Positions 24,756 through 30,420 of a stretch of DNA of 64,000 bases are shown in pieces. A model generated the notes under the pieces. It did no database searches and was not told where the DNA came from. It saw only the letters and a program-made list of their open reading frames with translations. Location: positions 800,001-864,000 of the forward strand of contig CAVSGP010000004.1 of assembly GCA_963727505.1 (NCBI GenBank), in the 5' to 3' direction. A program made the position numbers and the translations under genes. Numbering within the stretch: position 1 is the stretch's first letter; every line of letters begins with the position of its first letter. This DNA comes from an uncultured Trueperaceae bacterium. GTDB taxonomy: Bacteria; Deinococcota; Deinococci; Deinococcales; Trueperaceae.

Positions 24756-26543
24756 ATGAGCGACACGCTCGAATCAACCCGGGGCTTCGACACCATCGTC
24801 AAGGAGCGCACGCGTGACCCGCAACCCAATCTGCGGGACTACGCGGCGGTCGCCTCCGCGTTCGCCTGGGCGAACGTCCGGAAGGAGCTCGACGGCCTCC
24901 CGGGCGGCGCTGGCCTCAACATCGCCCACGAAGCGGTCGATCGCCACGCGCGCGGCCCTCTGCGTGAGCGGGTGGCGCTGCGCTTCCTGGGCAAGGCGGG
25001 CGGCGTGCGCGAGCTCACCTACGCCGAGCTCTCCGACGAGACCGCGCGCTTCGCCAACGTCCTGCGCGAGCTCGGCATCGCCAAGGGTGAACGCGTCTTC
25101 GGGCTCCTGGGGAGGGTACCCGAGCTGTACGTCGCCGTCCTGGGCACCTTGAAGGCGGGGAGCGTGTTCTGCCCGTTGTTCTCGGCCTTCGGGCCGGACC
25201 CTATCCGGCAGCGCCTGGAGATCGGTGAGGGTCGCGTGCTGGTCACCTCACCCACCCTGTACCGCAAAAAGGTGGCGGAGCTGCGCGACGCCCTGCCCGA
25301 CCTCGAGACCGTGCTGCTGGTGGGCGGCGAGGACGAGCCCACCGACGTGGAGGGTACCGTCGACTACCGCACGCTGATGCAGCGGGCCTCCACGTCGTTC
25401 ACGATCCCCCCGACCGACCCCGAGGACATGGCGCTGCTGCACTTCACCAGCGGCACCACCGGGCGACCGAAGGGCGCCGTCCACGTGCATCAAGCCGTGC
25501 TCCACCACTACGTGACGGGCCTGTACGCGCTGGACTTCCACGCCGACGACGTGTTCTGGTGCACGGCCGATCCCGGCTGGGTCACCGGCACCTCCTACGG
25601 CATCATCGCGCCGCTGTTGCATGGCATCACCAACGTGATCGACGAGGGCGACCTCGACGCCGACCGCTGGTACGGCATCATCCAGCAGCAGCGGGTCACC
25701 GTCTGGTACACCGCCCCGACCGCCGTGCGCATGCTGATGCGCGTGGGCGCGGACGCTGCGCGCGAGTACGACCTCTCCAGCCTGCGCTTCATCGGCAGCG
25801 TCGGCGAGCCCCTCAACCCGGAAGCGGTGGTGTGGGGGCAGCAGGCCTTCGGCCAGGCCATCCACGACAACTGGTGGCAGACCGAGACCGGCGGCATCAT
25901 GATCGCCAACTTCCGTTCCATGGACGTCAAGCCAGGCTCCATGGGTCGACCGCTGCCCGGCATCCAGGCCGGCATCGTGCGTCACCTGGAGGGCGGCCGC
26001 GTCGAGGAGATCACCGAGCTCGACACCGAAGGGGAGCTGGCGCTGAAGCCCGGCTGGCCCTCGATGTTCCGCGCCTACCTCCACGATGACGCGCGCTACC
26101 AGAAGTGCTTCGTCGACGGCTGGTACCTCACCGGCGACCTGGCGCGGCGCGACGCCGACGGCTACTACTGGTTCGTGGGGCGCGCCGACGACGTCATCAA
26201 GTCCGCCGGGCACCTCATCGGGCCGTTCGAGGTGGAGAGCGCGCTTCTCGAGCACCCCGCCGTGGCCGAGGCCGGCGTCATCGGCATCCCCGACCCGGTG
26301 GTGGGCGAGCTGGTGAAGGCGTTCGTGACGCTCCACAAGGGATTCGAACCCAGCGATGCGCTGCGGCTCGAGCTGCAGGGCCATGCGCGCAAGCGCCTCG
26401 GCCCGGCGGTGGCGCCCAAGGCCATCGATTTCCGCGACAGCCTGCCTCATACCCGTAGCGGCAAGATCATGCGACGCCTGCTGAAGGCGCGCGAGCTCGG
26501 GCTTCCCGAGGGCGACACCTCCACCCTGGAGGGCCAAGGATGA
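24756..26543 (+). CDS. acsA: Acetate--CoA ligase
   Basis: [60 protein letters not shown]. Confidence 0.92.
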
Positions 26544-27541
26544 ACGGCACCGCGAACCCCACCCGCGAGCACGGTCACGAGCTGCTGCGCGACATGTTGC
26601 GCATCCGGCGCATGGAGGAGAAGTGCGCCGAGCTCTACCAGGCCACCAAGATCCGCGGCTTCCTCCACCTCTACATCGGTGAGGAGGCCGTGGCGACGGG
26701 CGCCATGCGCGCGCTTCGACCCGAGGACGCGGTGGTGGCCACCTACCGCGAGCACGGCCATGCCCTGATCCGCGGCGTGCCTGCCGAGAAGATCCTGGCC
26801 GAGATGTACGGCAAGCAGGAGGGCTGCAGCCGCGGACGCGGCGGCTCCATGCACCTCTACGACGCAGACACCCACTTCTACGGCGGCAACGCCATCGTCG
26901 GTGGTGGCATCCCGCTGGCCGTCGGCATGGCGCTGGCGGACAAGATGCAGGGGCGTGCGCGCGTCAGCGCCTGCTTCTTCGGCGACGGCGCGGTGGCCGA
27001 GGGCGAGTTCCACGAATCGATGAACCTCGCCGCCCTGTGGCACCTGCCGGTGCTGTTCTGTTGCGAGAACAACCTCTACGGCATGGGCACCGGGATCGAA
27101 CGGGCGCAGTCCGAGACCCGCCTGGCGTTGAAGGCGGCGAGCTACCGCGTGCCGGCCTGGGACGTCGACGGCATGGACGTCCTGGCCGTCGAGGAGGCGA
27201 CCCAGCGGGCGGTCGACGCGGTGCGCGCCGGCGGCGGCCCGCACTTCCTGGAGTACCGCACCTACCGCTTCCGGGCGCACAGCATGTTCGACCCCGAGCT
27301 CTACCGCGACAAGGACGAGGTCGCCGCCTGGAAGGAGCGCGACCCCATCGCTCTGTTCCGCGAGCGCCTGCGGGCCGCCGAGCTGCTGACCGACGAGGAG
27401 GACGCCCAGCTCGAGGCCGTGGCGGCCGACGAGGTGGAGCGCGCCGTGGCGTTCGCCGAGGCGGGGACCTGGGAGCCGGTGGAGGAGCTGGAGCGCTTCG
27501 TCTACAGCGACCCCGCTCCCATGAAGGAGGTGGCATCGTGA
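26540..27541 (+). CDS. pdhA: Pyruvate dehydrogenase E1 alpha subunit
   Basis: [22 protein letters not shown]...ENN ThDP motif, YRFRAHS. Confidence 0.92.
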
Positions 27542-28569
27542 CGGTCGCAACGCCCAGCCGGCCCCCGGCCGCTCCGGAGGCCGAGCCCCGGACGACCACC
27601 TACCGCGAGGCCGTGCGGGAGGCCATCCGCGCCGCCATGCACGACGACGAGCGCGTGTTCCTGATGGGCGAGGACGTGGGCCGCTACGGCGGCTGCTACG
27701 CCGTCAGCATGGGGCTCCTGGAGGAGTTCGGCGAGGAGCGCATCCGCGACACCCCGCTCTCCGAATCGGGCTTCGTGGGCGCCGGCATCGGCGCCGCCAT
27801 GGCCGGCATGCGCCCCATCGTCGAGATCATGACGGTGAACTTCAGCCTGCTGGCGCTCGACCAGATCATGAACACTGCAGCGACCGTGCTGCACATGTCG
27901 GGCGGGCTGTTCAACGTGCCGCTGGTCATCCGCATGGCCACGGGCGGCGGGCGGCAACTCGCCGCCCAGCACTCCCACAGCCTGGAAGGGTGGTACGCCC
28001 ACATCCCCGGCATCCGGGTGCTCGCCCCCGGCACCGTGGAGGACGCCGGCGGCATGCTGGCGCCGGCGCTGGCCGACCCCGACCCCGTGCTCCTGTTCGA
28101 GAACGCCCTGCTCTACAACGACCAGGGCCCCGCACCCGACCCGGCGCGGCCGGTCGACATCGCGCACGCGCTGGTGCGCCGGCCCGGCACCGACATCAGC
28201 CTGCTCACCTACGGCGGTTCGCTCCACAAGACGCTGGAGGCCGCCGACACGCTCGAGCAGGAGGGCATCTCCGCCGAGGTCGTGGACCTGCGGGTGCTGA
28301 GGCCGCTCGATACCGACACCTTGCTCGCCTCCGTGGCGCGCACGCACCGCGTGGTCGTGGTGGACGAGGGCTGGCGCAGCGGCGGCATCGGCGCCGAGGT
28401 GCTCGCCCGCATCGCCGAACAGGGCCTCTACGACCTCGACGCGCCGCCCGAGCGGGTGTGCAGCGCCGAGGTGCCCCTCCCGTACGCCAAGCACATGGAG
28501 GAGGCCGCTCTGCCGAACGCCGCGAAGATCGTCGACGCGGCCCGGAAGGTGGTGGGCGTGCGTGGCTGA
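27538..28569 (+). CDS. pdhB: Pyruvate dehydrogenase E1 beta subunit
   Basis: [37 protein letters not shown] start follows AAGGAGG. Confidence 0.92.
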
Positions 28570-30157
28570 GTTCACGATGCCCTCGCTCGGCGCCGATATG
28601 GACGCCGGGCGCTTGCTCGAGTGGTACGTCAAGCCCGGCGACGCCGTGAAGCGCGGCGACATCGTGGCGCTGGTCGACACCGACAAGGCCGCCATCGAGG
28701 TGGAGATCTTCGAGGACGGTGTGGTGGGCGAGCTGCTGGTGCCCCCCGGGGAGAAGGTGCCGGTAGGGACGGCGTTGGCGACCATCGTGGCGGAAGGCGA
28801 GGCTGCGGCGGGCACTTCGGCTGACATCTCGGCCGTACCCGAGGCGCCGATCGAGGCCCGGATCGCGGCCCCGACCGAGCCGCCGGTCGCTCCGGCGGCG
28901 GAGCGCACGGCGACGCCACCCGCTCCAGCACGGGCCCCAACACAGGCCCCAGCACAGGCGCCCTCGATGGCCGCCGCCGGTACCGCACCGCCTCCCGAGG
29001 GAGCGGCGACGGCGGTGGCCGAACGGCCGCCCGCGGCCGCGTCCCGCCCCCACGCCACCCCGGCGGCCCGCACCCACGCGCGCGCGCAGGGCGTGGACCT
29101 GACGGCCGTGACGGGAAGCGGCCGCCACGGCGTCATCACCTGCCAGGACGTCGAGGCCGCGGCGGCGGCACGGGAGGCACCTGCAACGTCGACCGAGGCA
29201 GCCACACCATCGCACGAGGGTCCCGAAGCGACGGGACGCGTGCGGGCCTCGCCACTCGCCCGGAAAGTGGCGCAGCGCCTGGGCGTCGACCTGGCGAGCG
29301 TCCCCGGCACCGGCCCGGGCGGCGCGATCACCTGGCAAGACGTCGAGGCGATCGGCGGTCCCCTGCCTTCCGCACCCGAACCGCGCGCCGCGAGCCGGGA
29401 AGCTCCGGTCCGCGACGTGCCAGGCGAGGGTGCCCGGCCGATCGCCCCCAGCCCGACGCCTGCACGGAAAGCCACCCCTGCGGGCGACGAGCGCTACGCG
29501 GCCATGCGGCGCGCCATCGCCGCCGCCATGTCGAAGTCGAAGCGCGAGATCCCGCACTACTACCTCGACCTCCGCATCGACATGAGCGCCGCGCTGGCCT
29601 GGCTCGAGGAAACCAACCTGGCCCGCAGCGTCACCGAACGCCTCCTTCCCGCCGCCCTGCTGCTCAAGGCCGCCGCCCTCGCCACCCGCGACGTGCCTGA
29701 GGTCAACGGCTTCTACCGCGATGACGGCTTCGAGCCGAGCGAGTCGGTCCACCTCGGCGTGGGCATCTCCCTGCGGCAGGGAGGCCTGATCGCGCCGGCC
29801 ATCCACGACGCCGACCGAAAGGACCTCGACACCCTGATGGCCGACCTGCGCGACCTCGTGAAGCGGGCACGCAGCCTGCAGCTGCGCAGCTCGGAGATGA
29901 CGGACGGCACCCTCACCGCCACCATGCTGGGGGACCAGGGGGTGGAGAGCGTCTACGGCATCATCTACCCACCCCAGGTAGCACTGGTCGGCTTCGGGCG
30001 CGTGGTCGAGCGGCCCTGGGCCGAGAACGGCATGCTCGCCGTGCGCCCCACGCTCGCGGTCACGCTGGCAGCCGACCACCGCGCCAGCGACGGCCACCGC
30101 GGCGGCCTCTACCTGAGCGCCATCGAACGCCGCCTGCTGCACCCGGAGGAGCTATGA
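28562..30157 (+). CDS. pdhC: Dihydrolipoamide acyltransferase E2 with one lipoyl and two subunit-binding domains
   Basis: DTDKA lipoyl Lys, two PSBD repeats, IPHYYL, DHRASDG. Confidence 0.9.
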
Positions 30158-30420
30158 CCATGAACGCCCCCATCGCCAGCGAGAGCGAGATTCGCACCAT
30201 CGTCCTCGAGCTGCTTTCACAGGTCGCACCCGAGAGCGACCCGAGCGCGATCGATCCGGACGCCAGCATCCAGGAGCAGCTCGACATCGACTCCATCGAC
30301 TTCCTCAACCTCATCATGAGCGTGCACGAGAGGACCGGCATCGACATCCCCGAGCGCGACTACACCAAGGTCGGGACCCTGAACGACTGCGTGCGTTACC
30401 TGACCGCCAAGGCAAGCTGA
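30154..30420 (+). CDS. Acyl carrier protein
   Basis: Acidic 88-aa protein with LDIDSIDFL phosphopantetheine Ser motif and GIDIP. Overlaps the E2 stop. Confidence 0.88.
   Translation: MTMNAPIASESEIRTIVLELLSQVAPESDPSAIDPDASIQEQLDIDSIDFLNLIMSVHERTGIDIPERDYTKVGTLNDCVRYLTAKAS

Follow-up and report, generated by a model that had tools for sequence, protein, structure and literature searches.

A Horizontally Mobile Five-Gene Cassette That Joins Acetyl-CoA Synthetase and Pyruvate Dehydrogenase E1 and E2 to a Private Acyl Carrier Protein: A Possible Carrier-Bound Acetyl Relay

Organization of the Operon

Five co-oriented genes on the + strand at positions 24756–30420 of a 64,000-nucleotide stretch of DNA from an uncultured Trueperaceae bacterium (hereafter the window; positions 800001–864000 of contig C4 of a 3.26-Mb genome that is 97% complete) encode an acetyl-coenzyme A (acetyl-CoA) synthetase (AcsA), the α and β subunits of a pyruvate dehydrogenase (PDH)-type E1, a dihydrolipoamide acyltransferase (E2), and a free-standing acyl carrier protein (ACP). 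The genes overlap at all four junctions and together make up one copy of a self-contained cassette that moves horizontally. The initial annotation of this DNA had described five genes with overlapping start and stop codons, the last of them an ACP gene with an intact Asp–Ser serine, and this description holds in every detail checked.

Domains and families were assigned by Pfam and NCBIfam profile scans of the window proteins with curated cut-offs. AcsA (24756–26543, +), a short-type AMP-forming acetate ligase of 595 amino acids counted from the ATG at 24756, contains the AMP-binding (261.2 bits) and AMP-binding_C (86.2 bits) domains and scores 929.7 bits against the acetate–CoA ligase model NF003313 (cut-off 729); its start codon is preceded by the ribosome-binding site GGGAGGT, and the start position is aligned across five congeners. 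The AcsA gene joins the E1α gene in an ATGA at 26540. E1α (26540–27541, +) is a thiamine diphosphate (ThDP)-dependent enzyme of the PDH type (E1_dh, 296.7 bits; TIGR03182, 454.7 bits, cut-off 393.85), and its gene meets that of E1β (27538–28569, +; Transket_pyr, 122.5 bits; Transketolase_C, 132.1 bits; NF006667, 393.9 bits, cut-off 321) in a GTGA at 27538. An 8-nt overlap (28562–28569) leads into the E2 gene (28562–30157, +), whose product contains a Biotin_lipoyl domain (65.2 bits), two E3_binding stretches, and a 2-oxoacid_dh domain (181.1 bits), laid out as a lipoyl domain with Lys42, two E3/E1-binding domains, long Ala/Pro linkers, and a catalytic domain of the chloramphenicol acetyltransferase (CAT) fold with a DHRxxDGH motif. 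The E2 gene in turn overlaps the private ACP gene (30154–30420, +) in an ATGA at 30154, and an overlap of the E2 stop with the ACP start recurs in many other loci. The ACP has 88 amino acids, a pI of 4.1, and a PP-binding domain (40.0 bits, cut-off 20.8), in which Ser47 within the DIDSID sequence is the presumed phosphopantetheine site.

A Five-Gene Block Conserved across Phyla

A scan for the ACP-family pattern, with one genome per species, matched at least 598 stretches, 562 of which encode a relative of the ACP; the locus counts below, and the L numbers given to single loci, refer to the best 80 of these at least 562 relatives. Of the 78 loci that extend at least 300 bp upstream, 76 encode E2 directly before the ACP, and of the 58 that extend at least 5.6 kb upstream, 56 show the order AcsA–E1α–E1β–E2–ACP. 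The five-gene arrangement is far beyond chance, and the linkage of the ACP, for which the initial annotation had proposed a neighborhood survey, is conserved. L064 is a rearranged exception, L074 has no E1α or AcsA gene within 2.4 kb upstream of E1β, and the sequence of L082 is too short for its gene order to be judged. In L090 and L106, both from Opitutales-type bins, the ACP comes after a ketosynthase in a non-cassette context. A close relationship of the enzyme encoded after the ACP in these two loci to an amine oxidase of the window (33599–35206) was considered and rejected, there being no tblastn match at the thresholds used.

Across phyla, the identity to the window copy is 59–83% for AcsA, 61–87% for E1α, and 64–94% for E1β. 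The titles of the locus records name Actinomycetota, Acidobacteriota, Planctomycetota, Chloroflexota, Nitrospirota, Alphaproteobacteria (including Mesorhizobium huakuii), Gemmatimonadota, Myxococcota, and candidate phyla, so the cassette spans about ten phyla as well as plasmids and chromids of cultured bacteria; carriers that are cultured and non-pathogenic include Sinorhizobium fredii, Methylocystis rosea, Rhodococcus sp. DK17, and Desulfotalea psychrophila. With the ACP as the query, 24 plasmid or chromid records carry the cassette, and with E1α as the query, the best place on each plasmid is 60–80% identical in 30 records. Among the plasmid matches listed, E1α of the cassette type falls in a band of 59–74% identity, compared with at most 51.5% for the others and about 48% for housekeeping alphaproteobacterial pdhA. 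All three of the plasmid records missed by the ACP search have an ACP gene annotated directly after E2; this observation, together with the separate E1α band, indicates that the ACP travels as part of the cassette. In the strict anaerobe D. psychrophila, whose cassette lies on a conjugative plasmid, the ACP is followed by a lipoate–protein ligase gene.

The flanks, in contrast to the block itself, are variable, and the five genes are therefore regarded as the unit. A census of the 80 loci took in open reading frames (ORFs) up to 6 kb from the cassette. The commonest neighbor family, the universal stress protein (Usp), occurs in only 17 loci, followed by phosphoribosyltransferase (PRTase; 14), Hsp20 (11), RtcB (7), Archease (6), V-type ATPase subunits (5–6), and RlaP (5). 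The first ORF downstream of the ACP, visible in 67 loci, is likewise variable, and in none of the 67 does it encode a ketosynthase, a polyketide synthase (PKS), a nonribosomal peptide synthetase (NRPS), or an acyltransferase. None of these four kinds of enzyme occurs among the 20 most recurrent flank families or the scanned ORFs of the window, and a ketosynthase lies near the ACP only in the non-cassette loci L090 and L106, where it is upstream. The initial annotation had noted that no ketosynthase, PKS/NRPS, or phosphopantetheinyl transferase (PPTase) is encoded nearby, and this proved correct: nothing of the kind lies in the window, and the ketosynthase and the only PPTase match of the genome (AcpS-like, C4:755765–756097) lie outside it.

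In a few loci, genes of pyruvate metabolism touch the cassette: a pyruvate-kinase-like gene stands between E1β and E2 in L075 (6808–8730, 640 amino acids) and directly after the ACP in L060 (2772–4661, 629 amino acids), both in Nitrospirota, and ppsA neighbors the cassette on plasmid pDK1 of Rhodococcus sp. DK17. The two pyruvate-kinase-like proteins are unusually long, with the pyruvate kinase barrel making up only the C-terminal half. In L109, a gene for a Glu/Leu-type dehydrogenase is placed between AcsA and E1α.

In other bacteria, the cassette usually sits among genes of stress, dormancy, or low-oxygen response. Its neighbors encode Usp, Hsp20, BON, FtsH, and nicotinate PRTase on the S. 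fredii plasmid; Hsp20, Usp, Lsr2, and GNAT on that of Rhodococcus qingshengii; class II ribonucleotide reductase (RNR), ack, and pta on the Ralstonia plasmid; five Usp genes, flavodoxin, and alcohol dehydrogenase (ADH) on Streptomyces fungicidicus p1; ppsA, GNAT, Usp, and a GAF sensor kinase on pDK1; and pta–ack on the Sulfitobacter plasmid. Usp, Hsp20/α-crystallin, BON/phospholipid-binding proteins, class II RNR, ack, pta, and GAF sensor kinases, all neighbors of the cassette elsewhere, are the kinds of gene that PMC3721108 lists for low-oxygen and dormancy islands (the Burkholderia cenocepacia lxa locus and the actinomycete DosR/OsdR regulons). The window differs from such islands in that no neighbors of this kind were seen in it. 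PDH, ACP, and Acs are not mentioned in the main text of PMC3721108 (lxa) or PMC5069765 (OsdR), although their supplementary tables might list such genes.

The Carrier Protein and the E2 Component

The cassette ACP belongs to a family with the motif LDIDSIDFLN...TGIDIPERDY. Residues D46, S47, D49, P66, E67, R68, D69, and Y70 are invariant in 31 family members, so that, besides D46–S47, the segment E67–R68–D69–Y70 is an invariant surface motif. The PP-binding score above the cut-off and the invariant D46–S47 bear out the earlier description of a genuine ACP with an intact serine. The protein is not, however, the housekeeping AcpP of fatty-acid synthesis: it misses the AcpP models, with the best NCBIfam ACP model at 49.9 bits against a cut-off of 71, and an AcpP-like gene is found elsewhere in the genome, at C10:44643–44867, beside the only full ketosynthase gene (C10:45000). 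A protein-cluster atlas searched with the ACP returned generic ACP clusters only.

The catalytic motifs of E2 are intact, as K42, D505, H506, R507, G511, and H512 never vary among 31 cassette E2 sequences, and the C-terminus of these proteins always reads P-x-x-L. Most cassette E2s have one E3/E1-binding domain; two are present in this genus, in some Chloroflexota (L044, L049, L065), and in some Acidimicrobiia (Acidimicrobiia-type L050, L055, L070). The length of cassette E2s ranges from about 360 to 548 amino acids. The closest solved chains to the window E2 are PDH E2 cores (8piu_B, 220.2 bits), yet the protein falls below the cut-off of all 11 listed NCBIfam E2 models (best, TIGR01349, 289.5 bits against 445) and scores 184.3 bits on the E2 catalytic-domain model, compared with 281.8–290.5 bits for the three other E2s of the genome. 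An assignment to acetoin dehydrogenase (AcoABC) was rejected, as E2 fails the AcoC model NF011457 (77.7 bits against 307) and matches only its lipoyl end. A separate E1α/E1β pair at G000:C6:169948–174788 is accompanied, in place of a normal E2, by a 419-amino-acid protein with lipoyl and E3-binding domains and no detected 2-oxoacid_dh domain, which resembles an acetoin-dehydrogenase-type arrangement.

Compared with the heterotetrameric-E1 PDH of alphaproteobacteria, mitochondria, and Gram-positive bacteria (pdhA–pdhB–pdhC with lpd), the cassette has E1 subunits that meet PDH models and an E2 with the lipoyl, binding, and catalytic His–Asp features. It differs in its fixed association with AcsA and dedicated ACP genes, in the lack of lpd in the operon, in an E2 below the equivalog cut-offs, and in being, in this genome, an extra copy beside an AceE-type PDH.

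The Missing E3

Neither the operon nor the window encodes a dihydrolipoamide dehydrogenase (E3), as the initial annotation had pointed out; that part of its description stands, and the special meaning attached to it does not. Two lpdA genes above the cut-off are present in the genome, one following sucA–sucB (C9:192327–193712) and one standing alone about 75 kb upstream of the cassette (C4:749181–750548). The separate housekeeping PDH, the other item that the initial annotation had proposed looking for besides lpdA, was also found: an AceE-type E1 and an E2 are encoded on C9 without an adjacent E3, and a further E1α–E1β–E2 set on C14 also lacks one, so that a shared E3 acting in trans is the rule in this genome. 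Independence from E3 was considered and rejected, as all five other cassette genomes checked, picked as likely anaerobes (Anaerolineaceae, Dehalococcoidia, and a Heliobacteriaceae-labelled bin), contain lpdA. With lpdA elsewhere in the genome, the E3/E1-binding domains of E2 retained, and lpdA in five of five genomes, the missing E3 is not evidence for unusual chemistry.

Acetyl-CoA Synthetase of the Cassette

The closest solved chain to the cassette AcsA is 9g79_B, an acetyl-CoA synthetase of 572 amino acids. Measured against this Bacillus subtilis-type AcsA (NF003313; 9g79 chain B), the cassette protein aligns over its full length with 588.9 bits and keeps the Trp pair and the catalytic Lys; it differs in being encoded by the first gene of a PDH–ACP operon, and the GNAT protein encoded downstream is unlike the 9g79 chains. 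The sequences WWQTETGG and SGKIMRR, which we take to be the acetate-pocket Trp pair and the site of the catalytic Lys, respectively, are present without change in all 52 cassette AcsA sequences. These roles of the acetate-pocket and catalytic residues are partly confirmed by PMC13404658, according to which R194 and R584 of SeAcs contact the nucleotide end of CoA. At the loop of SeAcs R194, the cassette AcsA has R or K in 51 of 52 sequences and K or R at the next position in 52 of 52; at the position of R584, R is found in 52 of 52. Judged from sequence, these basic residues fit CoA and would equally suit an acidic ACP, and they do not discriminate between the two. A reading of acceptor choice from the CoA loop was tried and set aside: the short type of AcsA, including 9g79_B, differs from SeAcs there anyway, with a CoA loop two residues shorter, and the comparison of the SeAcs loop thus cannot tell CoA from ACP.

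Proposed Mechanism of a Carrier-Bound Acetyl Relay

Only AcsA, E1α–E1β, and E2 always accompany the ACP, and in the simplest model E2 therefore acetylates the ACP from pyruvate and AcsA ties the thioester pool to acetate. The variable flanks and the invariant surface motif of the ACP likewise suggest a partner encoded within the cassette. As no downstream user of acyl-ACP is linked to the cassette, an ACP-based acetyl relay inside the module is also the most economical reading. In this model, we infer that E1α–E1β would decarboxylate pyruvate on ThDP and reductively acetylate the lipoyl arm of E2, and that the dihydrolipoyl arm would be re-oxidized, as in an ordinary PDH, by the shared E3 (LpdA) of the genome docked on the binding domains of E2. 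What would set the module apart is the next step, in which the CAT-fold core of E2 would acetylate the private ACP on its phosphopantetheine thiol, instead of or besides CoA. AcsA would use the acetylated ACP and connect the same thioester pool with free acetate, and the module might thus serve as a closed pyruvate/acetyl-S-carrier/acetate unit for non-growing cells; which way the flux would run, and in what physiological setting this genus would use the module, are likewise proposals of the model. For ANL enzymes, to which AcsA belongs, and for the CAT fold shared by the E2 core and the condensation domains of NRPSs, CoA and carrier-protein phosphopantetheine are interchangeable thiols.

A precedent is offered by QncN/QncL/QncM of quinocarcin and SclQ1–4 of scleric acid biosynthesis, in which, according to PMC6335953, a ThDP/lipoyl E1–E2 system loads a glycolicacyl C2 unit onto an ACP. 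The cassette resembles these systems in having a ThDP enzyme, a protein with lipoyl and acyltransferase parts, and a stand-alone ACP without an E3 of its own. The Qnc and SclQ systems, as described in the same source, use a ketose phosphate and transketolase-like E1 parts, lie inside NRPS clusters, and include no acetate ligase, whereas the cassette has a PDH-type E1 and no linked assembly line; the likeness is drawn from the published description of these systems.

The contact between E2 and the ACP was modeled by complex prediction for the E2 core (residues 305–531, three copies) with the ACP, alongside three controls. The predicted complex obtained an ipSAE of 0.51 (0.51, 0.33, and 0.54 in the single runs), compared with 0.28 for the best control, a result classed as "weak support"; at least 82% of contacts are shared between the runs, and the predicted local distance difference test (pLDDT) value of the partner is at least 78. 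The prediction used alignments of our own and a trimer, in which it differs from the calibration. There, 116 of 157 solved complexes and 2 of 215 mismatched pairs attained the mark, but only 18 of the 157 solved complexes, and both of the passing mismatches, did so with values of at most 0.60.

A pyruvate dehydrogenase that uses E3 in trans, with an E2 that acetylates the private ACP and an AcsA that links the resulting pool to acetate, is accordingly put forward as a tentative reading, held with somewhat less than even confidence. The carrier-based relay of the initial annotation thus survives in the conserved E2 linkage, the lack of a linked acyl-ACP consumer, and the Qnc precedent (PMC6335953), but not in the weight that had been placed on the lack of E3.

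Alternative Explanations

Several observations weigh against such a relay, and some of them favor an ordinary accessory PDH and acetyl-CoA synthetase with a shared E3. The two enzymes would then produce acetyl-CoA from pyruvate and from acetate, respectively, and the ACP would be a passenger with a side role, for example as a structural or regulatory subunit or in handing acetyl units to lipid synthesis. E1α and E1β lie above the curated PDH cut-offs, as would be expected of an ordinary accessory PDH, and AcsA exceeds its cut-off as well; in all of the annotated records seen, the Prokaryotic Genome Annotation Pipeline (PGAP) calls the cassette genes pdhA and acsA. At 588.9 bits to 9g79_B, AcsA resembles a bona fide acetyl-CoA synthetase about as closely as any paralogue could, and since basic residues stand at its CoA-nucleotide positions in 51–52 of 52 sequences, CoA may be its only acceptor. 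E2, for its part, keeps its E3/E1-binding domains, with lpdA in trans. Fusions of the ACP to E2 or AcsA were found in none of 56 longer-protein candidates at E ≤ 1e-8, which is weak evidence, and by the counts of the prediction tool itself, the class into which the E2–ACP complex falls is "more often wrong than right" unless the interaction is likely beforehand. The window neighbors of the operon are a TauE exporter, a ZIP transporter, a GNAT protein, and oxidoreductases, with no Usp or Hsp20 among the window ORFs scanned; a stress setting for the cassette is therefore an extrapolation from other lineages. Finally, the genome also has AckA, Pta, a long Acs, and the AceE-type PDH, so the module is redundant for plain conversions of acetyl-CoA and acetate. 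This redundancy also speaks against an ordinary accessory PDH, which, moreover, leaves unexplained why an E2-coupled, non-housekeeping ACP with its own invariant surface motif stands next to E2 in nearly every locus and travels with the block across phyla and plasmids, and which sits poorly with the far lower score of the cassette E2 on the catalytic-domain model. An ordinary accessory PDH is for these reasons considered rather unlikely, though a serious competitor.

The same gene set could instead act as an ATP-conserving, CoA-independent relay for energy-starved, non-growing cells, in which AcsA would run in reverse and convert acetyl-S-ACP, AMP, and pyrophosphate (PPi) into acetate and ATP. 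An AMP-forming Acs runs in the ATP-forming direction in Syntrophus aciditrophicus, according to PMC4992975 and PMC13404658. Recurrent neighbors of the cassette elsewhere come from hypoxia or dormancy sets and from PPi/AMP metabolism, among them PRTases (14 loci), a phosphoribosyl pyrophosphate synthetase (L044), the pyruvate-kinase-like genes of L060 and L075, and ppsA on pDK1, and a strict anaerobe carries the cassette, together with a lipoate–protein ligase gene, on a conjugative plasmid. The argument is, however, one of thermodynamic and genomic reasoning only; AckA and Pta, already present in several carriers including this genome, weaken the need for such a route, the NADH produced would be unwelcome without oxygen, and the loop residues said to bias SaAcs1 are not confidently mappable onto the short AcsA with its shortened CoA loop. 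This variant is thus judged improbable. A redox-neutral variant would need neither E3 nor NAD+: the ThDP enzyme would carry out an acyloin-type condensation, or the module would run in reverse as a lipoyl-based acetate reductase. In its favor, carrier-protein thiols are in principle open to ANL and CAT-fold enzymes, and an alcohol dehydrogenase gene adjoins the cassette in S. fungicidicus p1 and in L093. The E3-binding domains are nevertheless retained, E3 is available in every genome tested, and running reductively would consume two ATP equivalents for each acetate, which leaves this variant a very slim chance; for the acyloin chemistry without NAD+ turnover that the initial annotation had raised, nothing was found in favor, no search having been aimed at carboligase features. 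A supply of C2 acyl-ACP for a secondary metabolite or special lipid, as by QncN/L/M for quinocarcin, would follow the same logic of ThDP E1, lipoyl E2, and stand-alone ACP (PMC6335953). It is highly unlikely, given that no NRPS, PKS, ketosynthase, or acyltransferase is linked to the cassette in the first downstream ORFs, the recurrent flank families, or the window, that E1 is of the PDH type and not a transketolase hybrid, and that the cassette is spread over about ten phyla amid variable flanks, a pattern unlike that of a biosynthetic cluster.

The Copy in This Genus and Its Structured Leader

In a search of 40 relatives, strong orthologues of the ACP (E ≤ 4.9e-39, 74–83% identity) were found in eight of nine other genomes of the genus, the one congener without it being an 81%-complete genome. 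The 31 genomes from the remaining genera of the family and order yielded no strong orthologue (best match, E 2.7e-9). Among the relatives sampled, the cassette copy is confined to one genus of the Deinococcales, and this patchiness fits acquisition by the genus. In a quick AcsA tree, the pair formed by the window and L032 joins an alphaproteobacterial trio with an SH-aLRT support of 83, which is too low to name a donor.

The operon is preceded, upstream of AcsA, by a 5' leader of 152 nt (24601–24752, +). The leader has a minimum free energy (MFE) of −84.9 kcal/mol (z = −5.07), and none of 200 shuffles folds as well. In the predicted fold, a closing helix pairs ACCUCCC (24607–24613) with the AcsA ribosome-binding site GGGAGGU (24742–24748), next to a hairpin at 24725–24741. 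The consensus fold of six congeners has 38 pairs, five of them with compensatory changes, the sequences being close relatives and the covariation thin. No Rfam family matched the leader above chance. A model built from it (R1), run against 71 sources, matches only its six building sequences and occurs once in its own genome; it was found upstream of the cassette in none of the 65 other sources, with a single match at E = 0.2 elsewhere in L055. The leader is therefore genus-specific and single-copy in the genome, and, judged from its modeled fold, may act as a switch of translation, for instance a thermosensor or a ligand sensor.

Within the genus, a fixed gene order of ZIP (−), TauE, a 110-amino-acid hydrophobic ORF, and the five cassette genes is kept. 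The TauE/SafE-family anion exporter (23467–24231, +; Pfam TauE, 155.6 bits) is co-oriented upstream of the operon and lies directly upstream in four of five congener loci (L122–L125), the fifth, L032, starting too late to show it. TauE is possibly part of the same unit as the cassette, but outside its pan-phylum core, and may be an acetate- or pyruvate-related transporter. A TauE gene is also found about 4 kb from the cassette on a Ralstonia wenshanensis plasmid. The small hydrophobic ORF (24239–24571, +; 110 amino acids) starts 7 bp after TauE and has no Pfam or NCBIfam match, and copies of it with 76–83% identity lie directly upstream of AcsA in five of five congener loci.

Downstream of the ACP, the window encodes a GNAT acetyltransferase (30826–31821, +), which is 98% identical in congener G003, where a 2.3-kb insertion parts it from the ACP. 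An AcuA-like role for this protein was rejected, as it shows no similarity to any 9g79 chain at E up to 0.01. GNAT genes are also found near the cassette on two Rhodococcus plasmids. Farther away, a transketolase-like C-terminal-half gene (52294–53376, −; Transket_pyr and Transketolase_C), near a sugar ABC transporter (45357–49070), encodes a product weakly similar to E1β and unrelated to the cassette. A 600-amino-acid ORF without a family match (36569–38371, −) overlaps the opposite-strand PlsY (G3P_acyltransf) gene (37260–37892, +) and is probably a high-GC artefact. The only trace of a mobile element seen in the window is an ORF with a DUF772 transposase domain (57351–57983, +), 27 kb from the cassette.

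Implications

A full-text literature search returned no paper on the cassette, which is apparently unstudied. New features of the copy described here are its confinement to one genus among the relatives sampled and a genus-specific structured leader that, in its predicted fold, masks the AcsA ribosome-binding site. For genome annotation, the calls pdhA, pdhB, E2, and acsA in stress islands of the kind described above are not to be read as a housekeeping PDH.

In hundreds of species from about ten phyla, the cassette ties two textbook enzymes, PDH and acetyl-CoA synthetase, to a carrier protein of their own. Its mobility on plasmids and its neighbors from dormancy and low-oxygen gene sets point to an undescribed form of acetyl handling in cells that stop growing. 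If the ATP-forming relay were true, the cassette would represent substrate-level phosphorylation on a protein-bound thioester, spread horizontally through the stress islands of many phyla.

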